This document shows, piece after piece, positions 4,811 through 14,084 of a stretch of 64,000 nucleotides of DNA (the first letter of the stretch is position 1; the number at the start of each line of letters is the position of its first letter). Source of the stretch: Ignavibacteria bacterium (GTDB lineage: Bacteria; Bacteroidota; Ignavibacteria; Kapaibacteriales; Kapaibacteriaceae); contig CANGZU010000002.1 in assembly GCA_947458785.1 (NCBI GenBank), positions 1,770 through 65,769 of the forward strand. The letters are read 5' to 3'. The notes below the pieces were generated by a model. The model was not told the origin of the DNA. It did no database searches and was given only the letters and a program-made list of their open reading frames with translations. The position numbers and the translations under genes were made by a program.

Positions 4811-5500
4811 ATGAATCAGATTGCAGAAAATCTCAAGGCAGTGCACGAACGAATCGATCTGGCTTGCTCCTTGTATCATCGATTGCCGCAGAGCGTTCAA
4901 CTTATGCTGGCAACAAAGACACAAACCGATAACGTTCTTCGCTCAGCTTTTGAAGCAGGTGAAACTCTCTTTGGGGAGAATCGTGTCCAAGAACTTGTGC
5001 CAAAGACATCAGAGTTGGCAGATCTACCAATCACATGGCACTTCATTGGTCACCTCCAAACGAATAAGGTCAAGGACGTGGTTGGTCGTGCCAGTTGCAT
5101 TCAATCAGTAGATCGTCAGTCACTTGTCGAGGCAATCCATAACGAGTGCACAAAGAAGCAAAGAGTGATCGACGTCATGATCGAGGTGAATACGTCGTTT
5201 GAAGAAAGCAAACATGGACTTCATCCGGATAATGCACCAGCATTCGTCGAAATGATCTCCGCTTATTCGACCATGCGCGTAAGGGGCTTCATGACAATCG
5301 GAGCGAACGTCGATGATGAGATAACTGTTCGCAAAGGATTCGCCATGCTTCGCGAACTGCGTGATCTTAGTCTGAGCATTCTACCGCAGGCCACTGAGCT
5401 TTCTATGGGTATGTCACACGATCTTGAGTGGGCTATCGCCGAAGGTTCGACCATAGTGCGCGTGGGAAGTGCCGTATTTGGTCAGCGTCCTAGCGCATGA
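4811..5500 (+). CDS. yggS: YggS-family pyridoxal-phosphate homeostasis protein
   Basis: Motifs ENRVQEL, WHFIGHLQTNKVKDVV, GMSHDLEWAIAEGSTIVRVGSAVFG. The start is set at the internal ATG at 4811 (MNQIAENLKAV...), which gives a canonical ~229 aa length and avoids overlap with the divergent gene. Confidence 0.85.
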   Translation: MNQIAENLKAVHERIDLACSLYHRLPQSVQLMLATKTQTDNVLRSAFEAGETLFGENRVQELVPKTSELADLPITWHFIGHLQTNKVKDVVGRASCIQSVDRQSLVEAIHNECTKKQRVIDVMIEVNTSFEESKHGLHPDNAPAFVEMISAYSTMRVRGFMTIGANVDDEITVRKGFAMLRELRDLSLSILPQATELSMGMSHDLEWAIAEGSTIVRVGSAVFGQRPSA

Positions 5501-7064
5501 TCACAACCGGCACCGACGTTGCGCCCAATTCGGTCGATACACGAAGAGTGTATTTTCCCGCTGGCAGGTGGCTAACATCTACGTTCGAGTCTGAAAGTCC
5601 TTGCTGAACCATATGCGGCTGGGCGTCATGATAGACGCGGTTTCCTGAGACGTCAATCAGTTCAATAGTAGCAGTACGCTCCTGATCACTTTCGATGATC
5701 ATGCGAATGCGCTCACGACTGGGGTTGGGCACCACAGAAACGTCCAGGCCTTTGAGGAGCTCGCGCTCATGAACGGATGTCGGAATTGGTGTGTCCATAT
5801 CGATCGATTCATCACCCGGCTGATAGGGGAGCCAGTGAAAGTAGCACAGTAGCATTTCATCTGTTGTTCCCTCGCCCCATCGAACTTCTTTTGGCGGATT
5901 ATTGGGGTTGTTCAGATTATTGATCGTGTTGTCGTATGTAGCGATGTAGTGGAGTTTAGAGCCACGTGGGATACGAACAGGATTCTTGTACGTATAGCCC
6001 CCTTGCCAATGGAAGTCCCATTGATCGAGCTTGATGAGGTTGATCGTATCACCCTTGGGTGTTACAGCAAAAGCCCTGCAGTCGCGCCCTAGAAGGTGCA
6101 TATGCGGAGCGATTCCGAGCAAGCTGATCTCGAGTGGAGTGGTATACGATGTGGTAAAGATCGGTACCTTATTGGCTGGAATGATGAACTTCTGCCCAGC
6201 CACCAAGTTGTTGGGCGACATAGGGAACTCCTGCACCTGACGCACGTCGTCGTTTTCATGGAAGAATACGTTCACGTGTGATTGGTCGTACTGTTCTGTC
6301 GTTGAAGGGGCGTAATGCACTTGAATAATCAGATCAGAGTTCTTGTGCATCGTAGCGCCGATCGTGGGCGGATAGAATCGCGTCTGTGCGCCTGGAACCC
6401 ACCCGAGAAACGAGGCGGCAGATTCAAATCCTGGATCGCCAAAACCGGAATAACCGGGGAGCTGATCTTCCGCATCTTTCTTGCGCGCTGTAGCCGTTGT
6501 ATCGAGGAAGTAAAGCACGTGGTGAACTACGGCGGCATTTCCCGGACGGAATTCCAGCGCTTTGATGTGTCGATCACGCAGAAGATTTGTCGGCAGCACG
6601 AAGAACCGATAGACGTCGCGATTGTTTCCCCGAACGGTCCACCTTTCGCTCATGGTGAGTACCATATCGGGCTTGCCAAGCTGCGAACCACTCGGAAATG
6701 TTGGGAGCTTAGGAGCGGCTGCAAGATCGCCCGAAGGAGTATCTGCATCTACCCAGTCTGAGATTGTTTGAATTTCGTCTTCTGTGAGAGAACGATCCCC
6801 AACGAAACTACCATGACCCTTTACCGGAGGCCACGGTGGCATTTCCTTCTTCGTCACTGCCCGCTTGATAGAATATGCGAAGTCAACCGCCTGCTCATAC
6901 GATTCAAGTGTGAAAGGGGCTATCTCTCCGCTGCGGTGGCATGGAGTGCAATTCTTGTAGATGATCTTTGCGACGTTGGAAGACCATGTGGGCGCTGAAC
7001 CTTGTGCCAGTGCGGCAATGGCTGCGAACACAATTGTGAGACCTACAGTGAGAGTTTGCTTCAT
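5490..7064 (-). CDS. Secreted fusion: c-type cytochrome domain, PHM/DBH-like copper type II monooxygenase domain, T9SS C-terminal sorting domain
   Basis: Signal peptide (MKQTLTVGLTIVFAAIAALAQG). CTPCH haem c motif with a downstream KKEMPPWPP. Candidate Cu ligands: VVHHVLYF, VHYAP, APHMHLLGR, TTDEMLLCYFHW. CTD-like tail (VVPNPSRERIRMII...GKYTLRVSTE). Confidence 0.7.
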   Translation of the reverse strand: MKQTLTVGLTIVFAAIAALAQGSAPTWSSNVAKIIYKNCTPCHRSGEIAPFTLESYEQAVDFAYSIKRAVTKKEMPPWPPVKGHGSFVGDRSLTEDEIQTISDWVDADTPSGDLAAAPKLPTFPSGSQLGKPDMVLTMSERWTVRGNNRDVYRFFVLPTNLLRDRHIKALEFRPGNAAVVHHVLYFLDTTATARKKDAEDQLPGYSGFGDPGFESAASFLGWVPGAQTRFYPPTIGATMHKNSDLIIQVHYAPSTTEQYDQSHVNVFFHENDDVRQVQEFPMSPNNLVAGQKFIIPANKVPIFTTSYTTPLEISLLGIAPHMHLLGRDCRAFAVTPKGDTINLIKLDQWDFHWQGGYTYKNPVRIPRGSKLHYIATYDNTINNLNNPNNPPKEVRWGEGTTDEMLLCYFHWLPYQPGDESIDMDTPIPTSVHERELLKGLDVSVVPNPSRERIRMIIESDQERTATIELIDVSGNRVYHDAQPHMVQQGLSDSNVDVSHLPAGKYTLRVSTELGATSVPVVIMR

Positions 7065-7126: not shown

Positions 7127-8020
7127 CTATTTAAACACCATCACTTTGAAGACGGCAGATGCCGGATCCTTGTCGGCATTATCGTAGTTGTTGAATCGAA
7201 TGGTTACAGTGTTTGCAGCTGACACCCATGCCGTGTAGCACGTGTTCACTAACACGGCTGCATTCGGAACGCCCAGAGATACAGCGTCGCCCGAGGCCGC
7301 TCCCGTAATAGTAACCGTTAAGTCAGATGAGTTGCGTGTAGCAGTTATCGGGAAGTTCAGTGTTGCCGTTGCAACGGCCATTTGACGCCAGGACATGGTA
7401 CCCGATGACGATACCTCCAGCACACCTCCGCCGAGTTGGGTTCCACTTGCTGCTTCAGAAGGCTTACTCGTTGGCCAATTGTAGGTCACGCTTCGTATTG
7501 TTGAAAGGTCGCCATTGGCGCCGATCACCAACTGCTGACTGCCACTGCTGTTCTGTACCTCTAATAGGTTTGCAGTAGCGCTTGCTGCCCCTCGAATGAT
7601 GAGGCCCTTTTCAGACGCGCTGGAAGTATTGAGTTGGAATCGACCATCAGGAGATGTTGTGCCCACGCCAAGTGTCGCACCATTGTCATAAAGGATACTA
7701 GTTCCAAGTCCAGTGGCTGAAGTGTATTTCGTAAGGTAGTTGGCGGTGCCATTGATAGTTGCGCCATTGAGCAGAGCAATCCAGCTAAGCCCGCCGGATC
7801 CGTCGTTTGAGAGTACCGATCCAGCTAAACCTTGTGCCGAAGGAAGTGTGAGCGAATACGTCGAATCGAGCGTTGGAGCAAGAAGTTGCACCACCTTACC
7901 ATTGCCGTTGTGTTGAATGTTCAGTTGTCGTGTGAGCAGCGGCAATTGAGCGTGTACCTGCACCGAGAGCAAAATGCACCCTATTGTCGTCAACGCACAC
8001 AGATACGATATGTGATTCAT
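7127..8020 (-). CDS. Secreted tail-fibre-like protein (paralogue family member 1), function unknown
   Basis: Signal peptide ending VHAQ. The N-terminal ~70 aa align with the protein at 8095..9180 (AQLPLLTRQLNIQ...YSLTLPSAQGLAGSVLSNDGSGGLSWIA versus AQLPFESREIKLQ...YTITLPNAVGSTGSLLYSNTTTGGLTWTG). No T9SS tail is recognisable. Confidence 0.6.
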   Translation of the reverse strand: MNHISYLCALTTIGCILLSVQVHAQLPLLTRQLNIQHNGNGKVVQLLAPTLDSTYSLTLPSAQGLAGSVLSNDGSGGLSWIALLNGATINGTANYLTKYTSATGLGTSILYDNGATLGVGTTSPDGRFQLNTSSASEKGLIIRGAASATANLLEVQNSSGSQQLVIGANGDLSTIRSVTYNWPTSKPSEAASGTQLGGGVLEVSSSGTMSWRQMAVATATLNFPITATRNSSDLTVTITGAASGDAVSLGVPNAAVLVNTCYTAWVSAANTVTIRFNNYDNADKDPASAVFKVMVFK

Positions 8021-8094
8021 GTTCTTCGATCCCTGGTGATGTATTGTCGGTGCACCTCACTCCGGCGCAATGCCGGAGTAAGCAGAACCGATGT

Positions 8095-9180
8095 TTACTG
8101 AGCTGCGAGAACCATGTAGCTAAACTTGCCACTGTATGCACCAGAGAACGTGACGGTGAAGCCTGTTCCAGGAGTGCGTGAAGTAACTGTTGCGGTTACT
8201 GATGTACTTCCTTCAAGTGTAACAAGAATTGCATCAGTTGCCGTCAGTGTTGTTAAACCGGTAACAGTGTGTGATGTTGCACCGGCAGCCGTTGTTACGA
8301 GTGCAACACTACGAATACCAATTGCGCTATTGATGCTTTGCCACTCTGGCGTTGCGCCTGTTCCCTTAGATACAAGTACGTTGCCAATGGATCCGGCAGC
8401 ACCATTCATTTGTAGTTCACGAGTAGTACCGACAAGATTAACGTTGCCAGTAACATCAAGATCGCCTGTCATATTCACGTCTCCAGTATGACCCAGCGTA
8501 CCAACTGTTGTGATGGTGCCACCGGTTCTACCGATAGTTACCGTTCCTGCAGTGGTGCCAGTACCGATGTTCGTAGCAAATGTGCCAGTCGATGTATTGA
8601 TGTTCGTTGCCCCGGTGAGGTTGGAGGTACCCAGGAGGTTGACAGTGTTGCCGTCTTTACCGATGTTGGTTGTAGCACCAGCATTGGTCCCATCATTGAT
8701 GCCAATGACGCCACTACCTGTGATGGACATACGCTCCAAGTTGTTCGTGATGATACTTATGCCCTGATTCGTTGAAGAACCGAGAACACCAGTAGCACCG
8801 AGAGCATTGCCCGTAAGAGACCAGTTCGGGTTGTCGGCACCTGCAGGGTCTACCCATTCGATTGCAGTCCCGTTCCAACGGAGCGAGTATCCCGTTCCGC
8901 CCGGAGCACCAGTCCATGTCAGACCACCTGTTGTTGTGTTGCTATACAGCAAAGAACCGGTGCTACCCACGGCATTAGGAAGCGTGATGGTGTATGGCGT
9001 GGTTACGGTTGAAGGAGCTACGATTGACAGAGATCCGGCTGCCGAACCCTGCAACTTGATCTCTCGTGATTCGAAAGGCAGCTGAGCGAAGGATTCATAC
9101 GGTACCGTAATGAGGACCGCAAGAGTAAGAGCGACACGTAGGCGTGTCAAGATTGTGGTTATGCGCATGTGCATCTCCAA
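8095..9180 (-). CDS. Secreted Gly/Thr-rich repeat, tail-fibre-like protein (paralogue family member 2)
   Basis: Signal peptide. The N-terminal module is shared with 7127..8020. The central part is degenerate G/T/N repeats (GTSNLTGATNINTSTGTFATNIGTGTTAGTVTIGRTGGTITTVG...). It contains the motif LQMNGAAGSIGNVLVSKGTGATPEWQS. Confidence 0.6.
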   Translation of the reverse strand: MEMHMRITTILTRLRVALTLAVLITVPYESFAQLPFESREIKLQGSAAGSLSIVAPSTVTTPYTITLPNAVGSTGSLLYSNTTTGGLTWTGAPGGTGYSLRWNGTAIEWVDPAGADNPNWSLTGNALGATGVLGSSTNQGISIITNNLERMSITGSGVIGINDGTNAGATTNIGKDGNTVNLLGTSNLTGATNINTSTGTFATNIGTGTTAGTVTIGRTGGTITTVGTLGHTGDVNMTGDLDVTGNVNLVGTTRELQMNGAAGSIGNVLVSKGTGATPEWQSINSAIGIRSVALVTTAAGATSHTVTGLTTLTATDAILVTLEGSTSVTATVTSRTPGTGFTVTFSGAYSGKFSYMVLAAQ

Positions 9181-9210
9181 TAAAGGTGGTGAATGAGAAT
9201 GTGCGGATGT

Positions 9211-10254
9211 CTAGAGATTCAAGACAATCCAATTGAAAGCTGCGTTAGGGGGCAATCCCCCTGTGAAATCGACTGTAAATCCCTGAGCCGTTCGATTTGA
9301 GATTACGCCCGTGCTCGAGGAACCGGTCGATTCCATCGTGATGAGAATTCGAGCTGAGGCCAGCAGATTCTCGATGGCTACCGGTGTGGAATTCCGTGTA
9401 TCGATTGTAATGGAGTACTGGCGTGTAGTTGTAGTGTTGATGTATCTGCCAGAGGCGATAGGCATTGTCACTACGGTAAGGGGCATTGTGGAGATCGACG
9501 TGATACGCCCATCTTTGCCCACCGTGATTCGAGGAATGTGCGTTGAATCTCCGTATGTACCCGGCGCAACGCCCGTTGACCTAAGATGCCGTGACGCAAT
9601 GGATGAGTCGTTTACCCCAAGCTTTACGGCAGAAGAACTTGGGTTCGTGATGCGGATGACAGAATCGAGTGTCGTTATGGTGATGCTTCCCACCACGCTC
9701 GATGCATCGATGTTGATATCGGTGCCATTCTGCGTGATGACGAGTCCGCCTGTACCACTGAGCCGAAGATCACCACTTGCACCATTCAAACTCAGCACGG
9801 CCCCTTTTGCATTGGGTAGCAGCCCACCGGCAACAACAGACGAGTGTGCTGCCATGGCATAAGGGGCCGATGTGAGCTTGGTTCGTGGTGAGAATGCTTG
9901 TTGAGCGGTTCCGGGAAGACCTATCTCTAGCCAGAGTTGCTGGGTAAAGTCGACATCACGAAGACTTACTTGCTCGCCAATGATGAGGTTGAACACACCG
10001 CCAATCACGGCAGTACTCAACTCATCAGCATAGACAGGCGAGCCATCTGTTGCTACAGTGAACAGCTTGACAGAGATTACGTACTGACCATCTGAATAGA
10101 CTGTCCCGTCCGGTTGAATGAGCACTCCCTGAAACGAAAGCAGTCGGGGTATACCTGTGTCTTCAGACTGAGCATGAGCACTCTGCGTTGTAGCTATCAT
10201 TACCACGATCGCGAGTATCATCAGCCCGATGTGCTGTAGCCTTTGCATTGTCAT
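9211..10254 (-). CDS. Secreted tail-fibre-like protein (related, with a different N-terminal module)
   Basis: Signal peptide ending AHAQ. Segments LSLNGASGDLRLSGTGGLVITQNGTDINIDA and GVAPGTYGDSTHIPRITVGKDGRITSIS resemble recurring phage side-tail-fibre motifs. The C-terminal module is comparable in length and alternating pattern to its two neighbours. Confidence 0.55.
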   Translation of the reverse strand: MTMQRLQHIGLMILAIVVMIATTQSAHAQSEDTGIPRLLSFQGVLIQPDGTVYSDGQYVISVKLFTVATDGSPVYADELSTAVIGGVFNLIIGEQVSLRDVDFTQQLWLEIGLPGTAQQAFSPRTKLTSAPYAMAAHSSVVAGGLLPNAKGAVLSLNGASGDLRLSGTGGLVITQNGTDINIDASSVVGSITITTLDSVIRITNPSSSAVKLGVNDSSIASRHLRSTGVAPGTYGDSTHIPRITVGKDGRITSISTMPLTVVTMPIASGRYINTTTTRQYSITIDTRNSTPVAIENLLASARILITMESTGSSSTGVISNRTAQGFTVDFTGGLPPNAAFNWIVLNL

Positions 10255-10261
10255 AGCGTGC

Positions 10262-10855
10262 CTAGCGATTGCAAGAGATAGTGGCCGAAAAGTGTTCGCG
10301 AGTAGTACTGGAAAACTGTTGTACGCTCACCCGCACGGTATAGAGTCCGTTTGCTACCGGAGTACCTCCTGCGTCGAGACCATTCCATAGGAAGAGCGCA
10401 GCATCTGGTCGCAGTTGGTTGGGTGTGACCGATCGGATCAGTGACCCACGGTTGTTGTAGATGTCTGCATGAGCAAACTCAATAAACGGATGCGTCACCT
10501 CGATGTGCAGGTTGTCGCGGAACGGATTGGGCCATGTCCATACACGAGCACCAGTCACAACATCAGACCCAGAGCCCACGGATGTAACGACCTCGACGGG
10601 AATCCAGAAACCAAGCATGAGTCGATGATTCAGCGATCGATACGTACCAACAGATGTAAGACCAACTATTGTGCTCAGCGAGAACGGCGTTGTAGGGTTT
10701 GTTGTCAGTAGTGCCGCCCCGCAGGATTGGACCACGCGCTGACGGGGCATCGTGAGCGGTACGTGGTTCGTCTGGGCATGTAAAGACTGATGCAGAGATC
10801 CGATCAAGGCTGCGAATGCATGAAGGGAGATCCAGACGAGGCGGCACATTGACAT
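10262..10855 (-). CDS. Small secreted protein with a T9SS/FlgD-Ig-like C-terminal domain
   Basis: Signal peptide ending LHAQ. The C-terminal half (WTWPNPFRDNLHIEV...ADIYNNRGSLIRSV...LFLWNGLDAGGTPVANGLYTVRVSV) matches the NPF-type sorting-domain pattern. Confidence 0.6.
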   Translation of the reverse strand: MSMCRLVWISLHAFAALIGSLHQSLHAQTNHVPLTMPRQRVVQSCGAALLTTNPTTPFSLSTIVGLTSVGTYRSLNHRLMLGFWIPVEVVTSVGSGSDVVTGARVWTWPNPFRDNLHIEVTHPFIEFAHADIYNNRGSLIRSVTPNQLRPDAALFLWNGLDAGGTPVANGLYTVRVSVQQFSSTTREHFSATISCNR

Positions 10856-10867
10856 TACAGCAACCCC

Positions 10868-11485
10868 TTAGTTGAAGTACCAAGCCAGTGTGAAGTTTGC
10901 CGAGGTAAGCCCAAGAGAAATGTCCGATGTTTCGGGTCCATCCGTCTCTGTACCTGCGGCATTGGTGATCTTGCTTGTGGAGGCCTTGTATCCAATGCCA
11001 TATTCAAGCATGAGCGAAACGTGCCTCCAAGGAAACCACTCTGCGCCAGTAAAGACACCGCCACCAAATGTTGTTGCGCTCACCTTGCTGATCTGCGAGC
11101 CTGCTGCATCATTCTTGATCTCGCCGAGGCCGAAGAGAACTTCGCCCCCTGCATACAGCGCGATGTTGTCGTTGTCGTAAACATTGTATCGCACGCCAGG
11201 TGTGATTGTAAACGACATTGCCGTGGTTTCTTCCTGAGCCGAGTTGTTCTTTGTTTCAACAGCATTGGAGAATCCAATACCAGCCCGTAAGGCGAGGTTG
11301 TTCGAGATAAAGGTCATCGCACCGAGACCGCCGCGGTAGTTTTCTGCACCAATGTCCGAGAGCCCCTTTAGGTCGAACAGCAATGCGCTAGATCCAGACT
11401 GATGCTGCGATGTAGGCTCACTCTGTGCATACGAGCAAAGCGTCGTCGATGCGATCAATGCGACCGCAACAAGAAATCGTTTCAT
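10868..11485 (-). CDS. Small outer-membrane beta-barrel protein (OmpA-beta-barrel / OmpW-like class)
   Basis: Signal peptide MKRFLVAVALIASTTLCSYAQ. Alternating hydrophobic/polar strands with G- and aromatic-rich turns; ends ...ANFTLAWYFN. The start is set at ATG 11485, which is preceded by GGAGG at 5 nt. The ORF-track start at 11500 is a GTG. Confidence 0.65.
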   Translation of the reverse strand: MKRFLVAVALIASTTLCSYAQSEPTSQHQSGSSALLFDLKGLSDIGAENYRGGLGAMTFISNNLALRAGIGFSNAVETKNNSAQEETTAMSFTITPGVRYNVYDNDNIALYAGGEVLFGLGEIKNDAAGSQISKVSATTFGGGVFTGAEWFPWRHVSLMLEYGIGYKASTSKITNAAGTETDGPETSDISLGLTSANFTLAWYFN

Positions 11486-11567
11486 TAGTACCTCCCTCAC
11501 GATGAGTTGAATAAATTGCCGGCGAAACCTTGCCGGCTCATTTCGGGTCGCAACATCATCCTTCGGA

Positions 11568-14084
11568 ATGTCTCATTTGCTACGACTTTCTTCAACTACG
11601 ACACTAGTACTCATGTTGTTTAGAATCTTGTTTTGGATTGTGATGCTGTTTTGGGCGGTGTCTACGCTGCATGCCGATGACGGCTCTGTGATCAACGGAA
11701 TCATCGTTGATAGCCTTACCAAACGGCCTATTCCGGGTGTTGCGATTCGCGCAAAGGGGGCTTCACTGGGCACCTATTCCAAGAGTGGTGGCAAGTTTCG
11801 ATTGCCGGTTCCAACGTCAACGACGCAGCTACAAGTGCGAGGAATTGGGTATGAGCAGCGTGCGATTGATATCGTAGCTGGAGCCTCCGATGTGCGTATC
11901 GCCCTTATGCCTACAAACGTGAATCTGCCCAATGTGAGCGTCGAAGAGTCGATCAGCGCACAGGAAGTGATCAAGCGTGCGATTGCCAAGAAGGATCTGA
12001 ACAATCAGAAGATTCGCTCGCTGGAACAGACGTTGTATTCAAAGGTGAAGGCAATACTGAGTGCCGGAGCACTGAGCAAGCGAGAGGGACCTTCGGAGAT
12101 CATAACCGAAACGTTCTCAACGATCACGGAGCAGCGTATTCCAACTGAGCGCAAATACACACGTATCACACAACGACGTCAGACAGCAAACATTCCGGCC
12201 CAGGATAATCTTGCAGTCTTCGATGTGTTCTTTGATTTCACAGAAGATGAAAACAATGTTCTTAACACACGGCTCGTAACGCCCCTTGGCAAGAATGCGC
12301 TTGATGAATACAACTTTGTTATCGATCGAAAAGTACTTCTCGACAATCTCTGGGTCTATGAGATATCCTTTGCCCCAAAGTCGAGGCTGTTTCCAGGATA
12401 TGAGGGGGTACTGAGTATCTACGAAGACTCCTATCAGGTAGTAGCAGCGCGATTTGCACCATCCCAGGAGACGGCGTTTCCGTTCCTGAAGAACTTTGTG
12501 ATCGAGCAGCGGTATGACCGCATACAAGACACACTCTGGGTGCCGACGTATCAGCAGGCGTCTGCAGAACTCAAAATCAAACTCATGCCGTTTGTAGAGT
12601 TTAAGGCAAGTGTTGTGGCTCAGATCAACGTAAGCTCCGTGCGGGCAAACATCGATGTACCTGATTCATTGTTTCCAGTAGTAGATCCAGACTCTGCTGA
12701 TTCGCGCGTGAAGACGGATGCACGGGGCGCTACTGTAGAGGTGCGGAGTAGAGATGGCAATAGTCGAATTGTCGTAGATGCAGAGGCGGATTCAGCCAAG
12801 CAGGAGTACTGGGACAAGTACGCCTTTGCAGAGCAGACAGACGAAGAACGGCAGATCTATGCCCGGCAGGACAGCATAAAGAAGGCTGATCCACAGGACG
12901 ATGATGACAGTCCGCGTGGACCACTAGCTGGCTCAATGTTCAACATAGGTAGCATTGGAAGTATAGCATTCGGATTAGACCCGTATATCAATCGAACAGG
13001 AATCACGGGTACATTGTACGGTCCGGCACTTGCCGTTGTTGCGCCACGTCTGCGCTTTACTGCCTCTGCCGGATTCGGCAGCGCGGGAACCCGCGTAGGC
13101 CGTGCGGATCTTGATGTGCGGCTGTTTCGATCCCGTGGCTATGGCCTGAACGCCTTAGGCTCGGTCTTCTCATCGATCGCCTCAATCCAGGATGCGCGAA
13201 ATGCACAGCTTGGCTTCAGCTCAATCGATGTTACAAACCTGATTTATGCAGAGTTCTCAGACTTCTACCGTCGAGATGGTTTCGACCTCGGACTTCGCCT
13301 TCGTGCGCCGTGGGGCGTTACAACAGTAGGGGGCTCGTGGGCACGCCAGTACAACGCACCGCTGCTCGAAGATCTCAAGCGTGAACAGGCCTTAGCCGCA
13401 CCTGGCAACTATCGTATTCTGGGCGTTCGAACACAGATTCTAGAGGGCGGCAACTCTGTTGGCAATCTCTTCGGTTCTTCGAAGGATGATCCCGTCACGG
13501 GGTCGTTACATGGTATCTATGGGACGGAACTTTCATCGAACACATCCTTCTGGAGCATTGATGCGAGTATCACGGGGCATATCCCGACGGTACGCACGGG
13601 ATATGCGCCCATGATGTTAGATCTGACGCTCGAGGGCGGTCTGCAACCGGCAGAGACGCCGCAGCAGTTTCGGTTTGTGACATTGCGAAGCTTCCCAGTG
13701 CTTGGCATGACCAACATGTTTGCAACGATCAATATCAACCGGTTTGCCGGCACGGAGTATGCAACGCTGCATGCTGAGCATAACTTTACGGACCTCTGGT
13801 GGCGGGCAATTGGTCTGCCCAGTCTCTCATTTGGCCGAGGTGTGGACCTGATTGGACGCTTCAGCGCTACGAACGTTGTGCAGCGTGCAAAGCCCCTTAC
13901 AGCTAATCAGCTCTTTGATTCTTCTAACGGCTATTACATGGAAGCAGGATTCGCTGTTTCCCGGATTCCATCATACATCAGCGATCTGATCTTCCTCCGT
14001 GTTGATGCTCGCTGGCCGGTTGGACCTCTTTCATCCCAGGGCAGCTTTGGCTGGATCCTGACGTTATCCAGTCCGCTGATGTAG
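11568..14084 (+). CDS. Carboxypeptidase-regulatory-like domain protein, DUF5686-type (large FCB-group envelope protein)
   Basis: N-terminal hydrophobic anchor, then INGIIVDSLTKRPIPGVAIRAKGASLGTYSKSGGKFRLPVP (CarboxypepD_reg-like). The ~830 aa size is typical of DUF5686 proteins. Confidence 0.55.
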   Translation: MSHLLRLSSTTTLVLMLFRILFWIVMLFWAVSTLHADDGSVINGIIVDSLTKRPIPGVAIRAKGASLGTYSKSGGKFRLPVPTSTTQLQVRGIGYEQRAIDIVAGASDVRIALMPTNVNLPNVSVEESISAQEVIKRAIAKKDLNNQKIRSLEQTLYSKVKAILSAGALSKREGPSEIITETFSTITEQRIPTERKYTRITQRRQTANIPAQDNLAVFDVFFDFTEDENNVLNTRLVTPLGKNALDEYNFVIDRKVLLDNLWVYEISFAPKSRLFPGYEGVLSIYEDSYQVVAARFAPSQETAFPFLKNFVIEQRYDRIQDTLWVPTYQQASAELKIKLMPFVEFKASVVAQINVSSVRANIDVPDSLFPVVDPDSADSRVKTDARGATVEVRSRDGNSRIVVDAEADSAKQEYWDKYAFAEQTDEERQIYARQDSIKKADPQDDDDSPRGPLAGSMFNIGSIGSIAFGLDPYINRTGITGTLYGPALAVVAPRLRFTASAGFGSAGTRVGRADLDVRLFRSRGYGLNALGSVFSSIASIQDARNAQLGFSSIDVTNLIYAEFSDFYRRDGFDLGLRLRAPWGVTTVGGSWARQYNAPLLEDLKREQALAAPGNYRILGVRTQILEGGNSVGNLFGSSKDDPVTGSLHGIYGTELSSNTSFWSIDASITGHIPTVRTGYAPMMLDLTLEGGLQPAETPQQFRFVTLRSFPVLGMTNMFATININRFAGTEYATLHAEHNFTDLWWRAIGLPSLSFGRGVDLIGRFSATNVVQRAKPLTANQLFDSSNGYYMEAGFAVSRIPSYISDLIFLRVDARWPVGPLSSQGSFGWILTLSSPLM

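Follow-up and report, generated by a model that had tools for sequence, protein, structure and literature searches.

A conserved gene cluster of Candidatus Kapabacteria that may encode short, MAT-like cell-surface fibres

The DNA analysed here is a 64,000-nucleotide (nt) stretch, hereafter the window, from contig 2 of a 2.13-Mb genome that is 98% complete. We studied five minus-strand open reading frames (ORFs) in it, called genes A to E; all coordinates are positions in the window. Our best explanation, to which we give a probability of roughly 0.6, is that they form a chromosomal operon, conserved in one genus of Candidatus Kapabacteria, for short cell-surface fibres or adhesins resembling the mosaic adhesive trimer (MAT) proteins of Bdellovibrio bacteriovorus. 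As judged from their sequences, C, D and E are Sec-exported proteins made of swapped modules, accompanied by a small outer-membrane barrel (A) and by a small protein (B) with a C-terminal domain (CTD) like those recognized by the secretion system of type IX (T9SS). The five genes are the following.

10868..11485, minus strand: gene A, small outer-membrane beta-barrel with a signal peptide, 205 aa from the ATG
10262..10855, minus strand: gene B, predicted secreted protein with a signal peptide, a mini-domain and a T9SS type-A-like CTD, 197 aa
9211..10254, minus strand: gene C, putative fibre protein with a signal peptide, an N1 domain, one stalk unit and a T1 tip, 347 aa
8095..9180, minus strand: gene D, putative fibre protein with a signal peptide, an N2 module, a G/T/N-rich stalk and a T1 tip, 361 aa
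7127..8020, minus strand: gene E, putative fibre protein with a signal peptide, an N2 module, stalk repeats and a T2 tip, 297 aa

The operon part of this explanation is drawn from spacing, order and context. From A to E, the genes are separated by 12, 7, 30 and 74 nt, as an earlier note on this DNA had stated and as the ORFs bear out. No terminator-like hairpin was found between the five genes on the minus strand, although such a scan is weak evidence. The order DUF5686 (divergent)/A-B-C-D-E-monooxygenase was kept in all 14 Kapabacteria loci examined, with C being 57-75% identical, and an orthologue of A leads the cluster in each of them. The surrounding genes are core genes, namely release factor (prfA/prfB), purK, lptFG and yggS-type genes. 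Close homologues all came from metagenome-assembled genomes (MAGs) of Candidatus Kapabacteria/Kapaibacterium and from freshwater metagenomes. The kept order, the core-gene neighbours and the absence of phage genes nearby agree with the earlier note, which had described a cellular module rather than a prophage remnant.

The fibre part is drawn from the similarity of N1 to the N-terminal domain of MAT proteins, from giant paralogues containing about 30 stalk units, from repeat insertions and deletions in the stalk of D, and from tips of phage type, that of E being also found in phage modules. The fibre-like character proposed in the earlier note is thereby upheld.

C, D and E are mosaics of heads, stalks and tips

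The N-termini of C, D and E resemble signal peptides; their sequence varies, and they are kept among orthologues. These signal peptides, as well as the lack of a T9SS tail in all three proteins, had been reported before and were found again. No Pfam family was detected in C, D or E. Their domain layout was deduced from the pattern of sharing, giving N1-stalk unit-T1 for C, N2-stalk-T1 for D and N2-stalk-T2 for E.

9835..10155, minus strand: N1 domain of C, residues 34-140, resembling the N-domain of MATs (NCBIfam NF053851)
9475..9642, minus strand: stalk repeat unit of C, residues ~205-260, containing PGTYGDSTHIPRITVGKDGRITS, with about 30 copies in giant paralogues
9214..9471, minus strand: T1 tip of C, residues 262-347, predicted beta-sandwich
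8905..9093, minus strand: N2 module of D, residues 30-92, common to D and E
8098..8337, minus strand: T1 tip of D, residues 282-361, aligned with that of C by hhalign and by reciprocal hidden Markov model (HMM) hits
7775..7957, minus strand: N2 module of E, residues 22-82, common to D and E
7130..7387, minus strand: T2 tip of E, residues 212-297, predicted to be of the phage receptor-binding-protein type

Residues 34-96 of C matched NF053851 (Bdello_MAT_N) with an E-value of 1e-5. Within the C family, the same model was matched by 29 of 34 members at E-values of 0.01 or better (best 3.4e-7). The earlier note had been unable to assign any of the five proteins to a named family; this must be amended, C being weakly related to Bdello_MAT_N. 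With D, only an E-value of 0.14 was obtained, in a different region, and E gave no match. N1 also heads three ORFs of the same genome, of 1424, 1599 and 1665 aa, which are made of about 30 copies of the stalk unit of C and are hereafter called giants. In relatives, N1 proteins reach about 4900 aa.

The stalk unit, present once in C (PGTYGDS..IPRITVGKDGRITS), is repeated in giant paralogues encoded on contigs C4, C25 and C20. The earlier note had compared its PGTYGDSTHIPRITVGKDGRITS stretch to a repeat of phage side-tail fibres. It is a true repeat with many copies in the giants; its side-tail-fibre identity could not be confirmed, as no Pfam match to such a repeat (G.Y..VTV..KG.VT) was obtained at an E-value of 1 or below in C, or of 0.1 or below in the giants. 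The sole Pfam result in the giants at that latter threshold was DUF5907, in one of them. All of the motif strings quoted in the earlier note are present in the translations, and the stalk motifs of type G..G.VL.S.G.G...W are also found in giant fibre-like proteins.

The ~70-aa N-terminal module previously proposed to link D and E is real: N2 shows 36% identity between the two proteins over 74 aa (E-value 3e-10), with an hhalign probability of 88% and HMM hits. The N2 unit of E also matches repeats inside giant proteins. Between orthologues, the stalk of D differs in length through repeat insertions and deletions. No similarity was detectable between C and E.

In AlphaFold2 monomer models of C and E, the N-terminal and tip domains were confidently predicted, and the stalks had predicted local distance difference test (pLDDT) values of 35-65. 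Confident ends with poorly modelled stalks would be expected of an obligate trimer, without constituting proof of one.

Two distinct tip domains, one of them widespread in phages

T1 is common to C and D, as indicated by BLAST (E-value 4e-4), hhalign (probability 79%, E-value 1.6e-5) and reciprocal HMM searches. It was modelled in C as a beta-sandwich with pLDDT of about 80-90. Among the fold matches of the C model were the C-terminus of the cyanophage Pam1 tailspike, the foot of the R-pyocin fibre, a Klebsiella-phage depolymerase and H-type lectins. For the latter (Helix pomatia agglutinin fold), Foldseek gave probabilities of 0.8-0.9 and target-normalised template modelling scores of 0.38-0.49, with E-values above 0.1; no match of T1 to the H-type lectin was found in Pfam. 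No relatives of the C and D families turned up when IMG/VR was scanned by pattern, which is weak evidence because such scans reach only fairly close relatives.

T2 was modelled with pLDDT above 90, and its fold matches in the PDB were similar to those of the C model. In Foldseek comparisons, which the earlier note had suggested, the tips resembled those of phage receptor-binding proteins and pyocin fibres, the PDB matches being weak. Searches with E gave 5968 representative proteins, most of them related through T2, located at the extreme C-terminus with 50-77% identity. T2 is a beta-sandwich of about 85 aa, and the proteins that bear it span 98 to ~1950 aa and come from phage contigs and many bacterial phyla. 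In IMG/VR, 129 loci were confirmed, with 50-72% identity. In one 40-kb phage contig that was checked, a 680-aa protein ending in T2 is encoded after the genes for head protease and portal. A Foldseek search of BFVD with T2 gave significant matches to predicted phage proteins. The best one (E-value 6.6e-8, 49% identity, root-mean-square deviation 1.1 Å) lies at the end of an SGNH-hydrolase protein, 1172 aa long, from an uncultured phage. Thirty-five matches had an E-value of 1e-3 or below, including tailspike, pectate-lyase and tail-fibre proteins. Only one weak match to the E tip was obtained among GenBank phages. Pfam and NCBIfam contain no model matching T2, nor any matching nine proteins that share the tip or the stalk of E, and a PDB sequence search with the C and E family profiles returned nothing useful.

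The earlier note had asked whether the three C-terminal modules are one novel sorting or anchoring domain. A single module common to C, D and E was rejected on the basis of hhalign and HMM comparisons, T1 being shared by C and D and the tip of E being the phage-type T2. T2 was also considered as a new T9SS sorting domain, and this was rejected since it is common in phage contigs and found across many phyla. It occurs in MAGs of Patescibacteria, Planctomycetota, Acidobacteria, Verrucomicrobia, Chloroflexi and Bdellovibrio, and its presence in phyla without T9SS means that it is no sorting signal.

In a Bdellovibrio MAG, a 329-aa protein (L086 3719-4708) combines a body of YadA-head-like repeats with an E-type tip, and its gene is convergent with that of a small outer-membrane barrel (L086 5145-5942). 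This protein was considered as a link between T2 and MATs and rejected, its body being different and devoid of the MAT N-domain.

A is a small barrel and B a credible T9SS substrate

A matched Pfam OMP_b-brl (PF13505) with an E-value of 1.1e-11 and 45.7 bits, above the cut-off of 28.7, and DUF3575 with 24.9 bits (cut-off 21.1). The former match, together with an AGGGAGG sequence 6 nt before the ATG, fits the previous description of a barrel of about 205 aa with a strong ribosome-binding site.

B consists of two domains after its signal peptide.

10586..10750, minus strand: mini-domain of B, residues 36-90, pattern R.V..SGG...LS.TIGQ...GFW.P, from the family alignment
10265..10558, minus strand: C-terminal domain of B, residues 100-197, T9SS CTD-like (PNPF ... 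G.Y ... R), from HMM

The C-terminal half of B had been read as a T9SS/FlgD-Ig-like domain. This reading held, B being over the cut-off of Pfam FlgD_ig (29.6 bits for 27); the copy in the window remained under those of the T9SS-tail models, with 19.3 bits for 23 (TIGR04183) and 19.1 for 27 (PF18962, Por_Secre_tail). B also matched the C-terminal region of PorU (E-value 1.3e-5). In the B family, all 11 members matched the PorU CTD region and nine matched TIGR04183 (best E-value 5.1e-8). The best CTD scores of B were against the retained CTDs of PorU and PorZ. An HMM of the B CTD detected about 28 other proteins of the same genome, PorU included, and in each case the hit was at the extreme C-terminus. 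Two T9SS components, SprA and PorU, are encoded in the genome. With these components and CTD matches, B appears to be a credible T9SS substrate whose passenger would be the mini-domain only.

B-like genes accompany N1 genes in paralogous loci

The mini-domain of B, of about 55 aa, is found in no other protein of its own genome; in relatives, it is encoded 5′ of N1 fibre genes. A B-like gene with mini-domain and CTD lies directly 5′ of an N1 gene in about 15 further loci of the genus. These loci are paralogous, come in addition to the 14 orthologous ones and are spread over at least 7 other genomes. The two genes often overlap by 1 nt through their stop and start codons. One paralogous locus, with 38-41% identity, repeats the order seen from B to E: a B-like gene (B′), an N1-T1 protein, an N2 protein with a long stalk and T1, and an N2 protein with a different, third tip.

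The giants (C4:132-13658, C25:3-4274 and C20:1-3013; L015, L016 and L018) show a related arrangement. On contig C4, a 320-370-aa protein with a CTD-like tail comes after each of the two N1 ORFs, of 1599 and 1665 aa, and a 255-307-aa barrel comes next. A third pair of CTD-like protein and barrel follows a giant-type ORF that runs in from the C20 contig edge. In these trios, the middle protein has a tail that aligned with the B CTD (hhalign probability 76%, E-value 2.3e-5). Neither A nor B showed BLAST similarity to the barrels and CTD-like proteins accompanying the giants; the tails are linked by the profile comparison only. Counting the cluster of the window, a trio of fibre, CTD-type protein and barrel occurs four times. 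The first C4 giant starts too near the contig edge for a B partner to be judged.

Some further features of these loci were recorded. The 1424-aa giant is cut at the C25 edge, and the partial ORF at the C20 edge probably represents its C-terminal end. The C4 giants share a distinct C-terminal domain ending in ...ITFIYSG.L.KWVLMATT. On contig C21 (19757-21411; L017 7758-9412), another small pair consists of a 241-aa N1 protein and, after it, a 299-aa N2 protein, the C-terminus of the latter resembling T1 by eye; the gene upstream is ftsY, and neither a B-like nor a barrel gene is present there.

A, B and C diverge as one block

In the closest relative (L025), DNA identity was 55-72% in A-B-C and mostly 84-97% in D, E and both flanks. 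At the junction between the C stop and the D start, identity jumped from 68.5% to 96%. Identity also dipped to 68-80% around the stop codon of E and the spacer that precedes the monooxygenase gene.

9226-11590: low-identity trough over the A-B-C block, from the DNA comparison with L025

The low identity of A-B-C and the sharp break at the C/D junction indicate that A, B and C were exchanged or diverged as one unit. In this comparison, the trough looks like either allelic replacement or strong diversifying selection on the block.

The whole syntenic locus is also found in L026 (JBIICY010000006.1), L025 and L028, where the public labels 'Patescibacteria group bacterium' and 'uncultured Melioribacter sp.' look wrong. 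A 142-aa metagenomic protein (P0174) joins the N-terminal 78 aa of an A-type barrel to a C-terminal portion of an E-type tip, and reflects either an assembly artefact or a deletion fusing A to E in some population.

Neighbouring features

11491..11497, minus strand: ribosome-binding site AGGGAGG, 6 nt 5′ of the ATG of A, read from the sequence
5490..7064, minus strand: cytochrome-c/copper-monooxygenase-like protein with a T9SS tail, downstream of E (Por_Secre_tail 31.4 bits and Cu2_monoox_C, Pfam)
11568..14084, plus strand: DUF5686/CarboxypepD_reg outer-membrane protein, divergent neighbour of A (Pfam)

The monooxygenase-like gene is a sixth co-directional gene, starting 62 nt past E, and may be co-transcribed with A-E. 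In every locus long enough, it comes next after E, about 60-120 nt downstream; the paralogous fibre loci do not have it. The DUF5686 gene is divergent from A in all loci reaching that far. In the 82-nt spacer between A and DUF5686, which would be the 5′ leader or promoter region of A, a perfect 6-bp GC hairpin (GCCGGC ... GCCGGC) is followed by AATTTATT (window 11518-11537). A scan for sigma-70 promoters and terminators gave results no different from those with shuffled sequence; the consensus used does not suit this phylum.

Comparison with MATs, phage fibres and T9SS cargo-anchor pairs

In Caulton et al. 2024 (PMC10769870), all 21 MATs of B. bacteriovorus are described with a beta-rich domain right after the signal peptide, and beyond this N-domain with a stalk that is trimeric and tips that can be swapped. 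For the N-domain, binding to a surface element is proposed there, a partner that 'awaits further study'. The conserved N-domain of the MAT family is about 130 aa long, and the stalk is an intertwined trimeric beta-prism or beta-helix. C has the same order of parts, N1 coming right after the signal peptide, then the stalk and then an interchangeable tip, and Bdello_MAT_N is the only named sequence match of its N1. As with MATs, there are many paralogues per genome, the tips are drawn from phage and lectin folds, and the genes are chromosomal rather than prophage-borne. The tips are also interchangeable as in MATs, C and D ending in T1, E in the distinct T2 and a protein of a paralogous locus in a third tip. 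Unlike in MATs, no S74 chaperone-protease domain was found with Pfam in C, D or E. The host also differs, being a T9SS-bearing relative of Bacteroidota and no known predator, and its N1 genes are paired with that of a T9SS-tagged mini-protein and here also with a barrel gene. In the passages searched of PMC10769870, neither a partner gene nor an operon or secretion route was found for MATs.

Phage tail fibres, tailspikes and R-type pyocin fibres (6cl5/6cl6/6ct8, 7eea, 6tku, 4ru4) have C-terminal beta-sandwich tips of similar fold. With phage fibres and depolymerases the likeness extends to sequence in the case of E, whose tip belongs to the same family as tips of uncultured phages (50-72% identity); for C it is limited to a weak similarity of fold. 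The three proteins differ from phage fibres in having signal peptides, no baseplate-attachment domain, no phage context and a conserved cellular locus.

The adjacency of a barrel gene and a gene for a CTD protein is reminiscent of T9SS cargo-anchor pairs, such as type-B CTD proteins with PorP/SprF-like barrels (PMC9143113), and PorZ-PorQ and PorU-PorV of the attachment complex. The differences are that A is much smaller than PorP, PorQ or PorV, that the CTD of B is type-A-like, and that the proposed passengers C, D and E have no CTD.

Several observations weigh against a MAT-like fibre operon. The score of C with Bdello_MAT_N, 25.4 bits, is far below the family cut-off of 60, and D and E have no N1 and thus no such N-domain. 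C, D and E have 300-360 aa as compared to ~1000 aa for MAT proteins, so that C is about one third of the size of a MAT protein. The PDB matches of the C model in Foldseek were weak, with E-values from 0.008 to ~0.3 (probabilities 0.8-1.0 for those named above). A C orthologue was present in roughly half of 24 searched genomes of the genus. A is a generic barrel of 8-strand size without similarity to PorP, PorQ or PorV, and no T9SS tail was found in C, D or E with Pfam, NCBIfam or a genome-specific CTD HMM. Finally, B partners are lacking at two checked N1 genes from other families of the order. The own genome has four N1 genes besides C, and at least two of them, for the giant on C25 and the 241-aa protein on C21, likewise have no B partner.

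Alternative explanations

A, B and the three beta-rich proteins could be independent envelope proteins, for example lectin-like monomers of the periplasm or outer membrane, that are merely adjacent. The low-confidence stalk models and the generic nature of the A barrel would be accommodated in this way. The tight spacing, the invariant order and the modules common to C, D and E would not, nor would the adjacency of B and N1 genes in about 15 paralogous loci, with an overlap of stop and start codons, or the divergence of A-B-C as a block with a sharp boundary. We consider this explanation unlikely.

Slightly less probable still is that A-E are small helpers, comparable to SprC/SprD/SprF, of a gliding or SprB-like system in which the giant N1 proteins would be mobile, T9SS-dependent adhesins. 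The T9SS is present in the genome, N1 heads giant repeat proteins, and trios of adhesin, barrel and CTD-like protein recur; anchorage by CTD proteins paired with PorP-like barrels is moreover known (PMC9143113). Against helpers stand the completeness of A-E as a separately conserved locus that is not beside a giant gene, and the full head-stalk-tip layout of each of C, D and E. Searches of Pfam and NCBIfam gave no match to the PorP/SprF, SprC or SprD families, and no type-B CTD was found in the giants checked.

An origin of C, D and E from domesticated or decaying phage material, as tail fibres of a prophage remnant or as spare fibres serving a tailocin or contractile injection system whose genes lie elsewhere, is very improbable: despite the abundance of the E tip in phage contigs, one of them with this tip inside a phage structural module, and the similarity of the tips to pyocin-fibre feet, no phage gene is nearby, the 14 loci keep perfect synteny with core genes at 57-75% protein identity, PHROGs gave no tail-fibre family (weak matches of unknown function for C and E, none for A, B and D), C and D had no relatives in the IMG/VR pattern scan, and the signal peptides of C, D and E, conserved in orthologues, fit poorly with cytoplasmic assembly onto a tail.

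Proposed working of the cluster

With a MAT-like fibre operon, which we prefer over these alternatives, C, D and E would be displayed as trimeric adhesins on the cell surface. The T9SS would export B and leave it attached to the surface, where the mini-domain of B may serve as a dock, perhaps also as an export adaptor, for the N1 head of C. A would supply the membrane anchor, a role suggested by gene neighbourhood only. The ligand of the fibres might be a glycan or a protein on another surface, such as that of a cell, of an algal or cyanobacterial partner or of a particle.

A bolder version of this scheme, in which B acts as a T9SS signal 'in trans' for fibres that have no CTD and C, D and E are joined end to end, appears doubtful. 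The mini-domain of B would clamp the N1 head; the complex of B and fibre would pass through the T9SS and stay tethered via B, with A as the membrane partner. C would dock with its T1 tip onto N2 of D, as would D with its own T1 tip onto N2 of E. The resulting segmented fibre would resemble the long tail fibre of T4, its distal end being the phage-type tip T2. Such piggyback export and end-to-end joining would be consistent with the module pattern and the gene order.

Significance

Phage-fibre-like adhesins on bacterial cells are already known from Bdellovibrio. New in the present case are proteins of minimal size, a mosaic set of three genes, the lineage of the host and the genetic coupling to a T9SS-tagged mini-protein and a barrel. 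With only 300-360 aa each, C, D and E make a minimal fibre set suited to structure determination. T2, with about 6000 representative proteins, is very common as a receptor-binding tip of phages and merits a family entry. B and A, which diverge together with C, are concrete candidates for the export and anchoring of MAT-type fibres. If export 'in trans' were true, it would represent a new mode of T9SS export and anchoring and provide a long-sought kind of partner for the MAT N-domain. Finally, the many giant and mini fibres encoded in a 2.1-Mb genome hint at an attached lifestyle of these uncultured freshwater bacteria.

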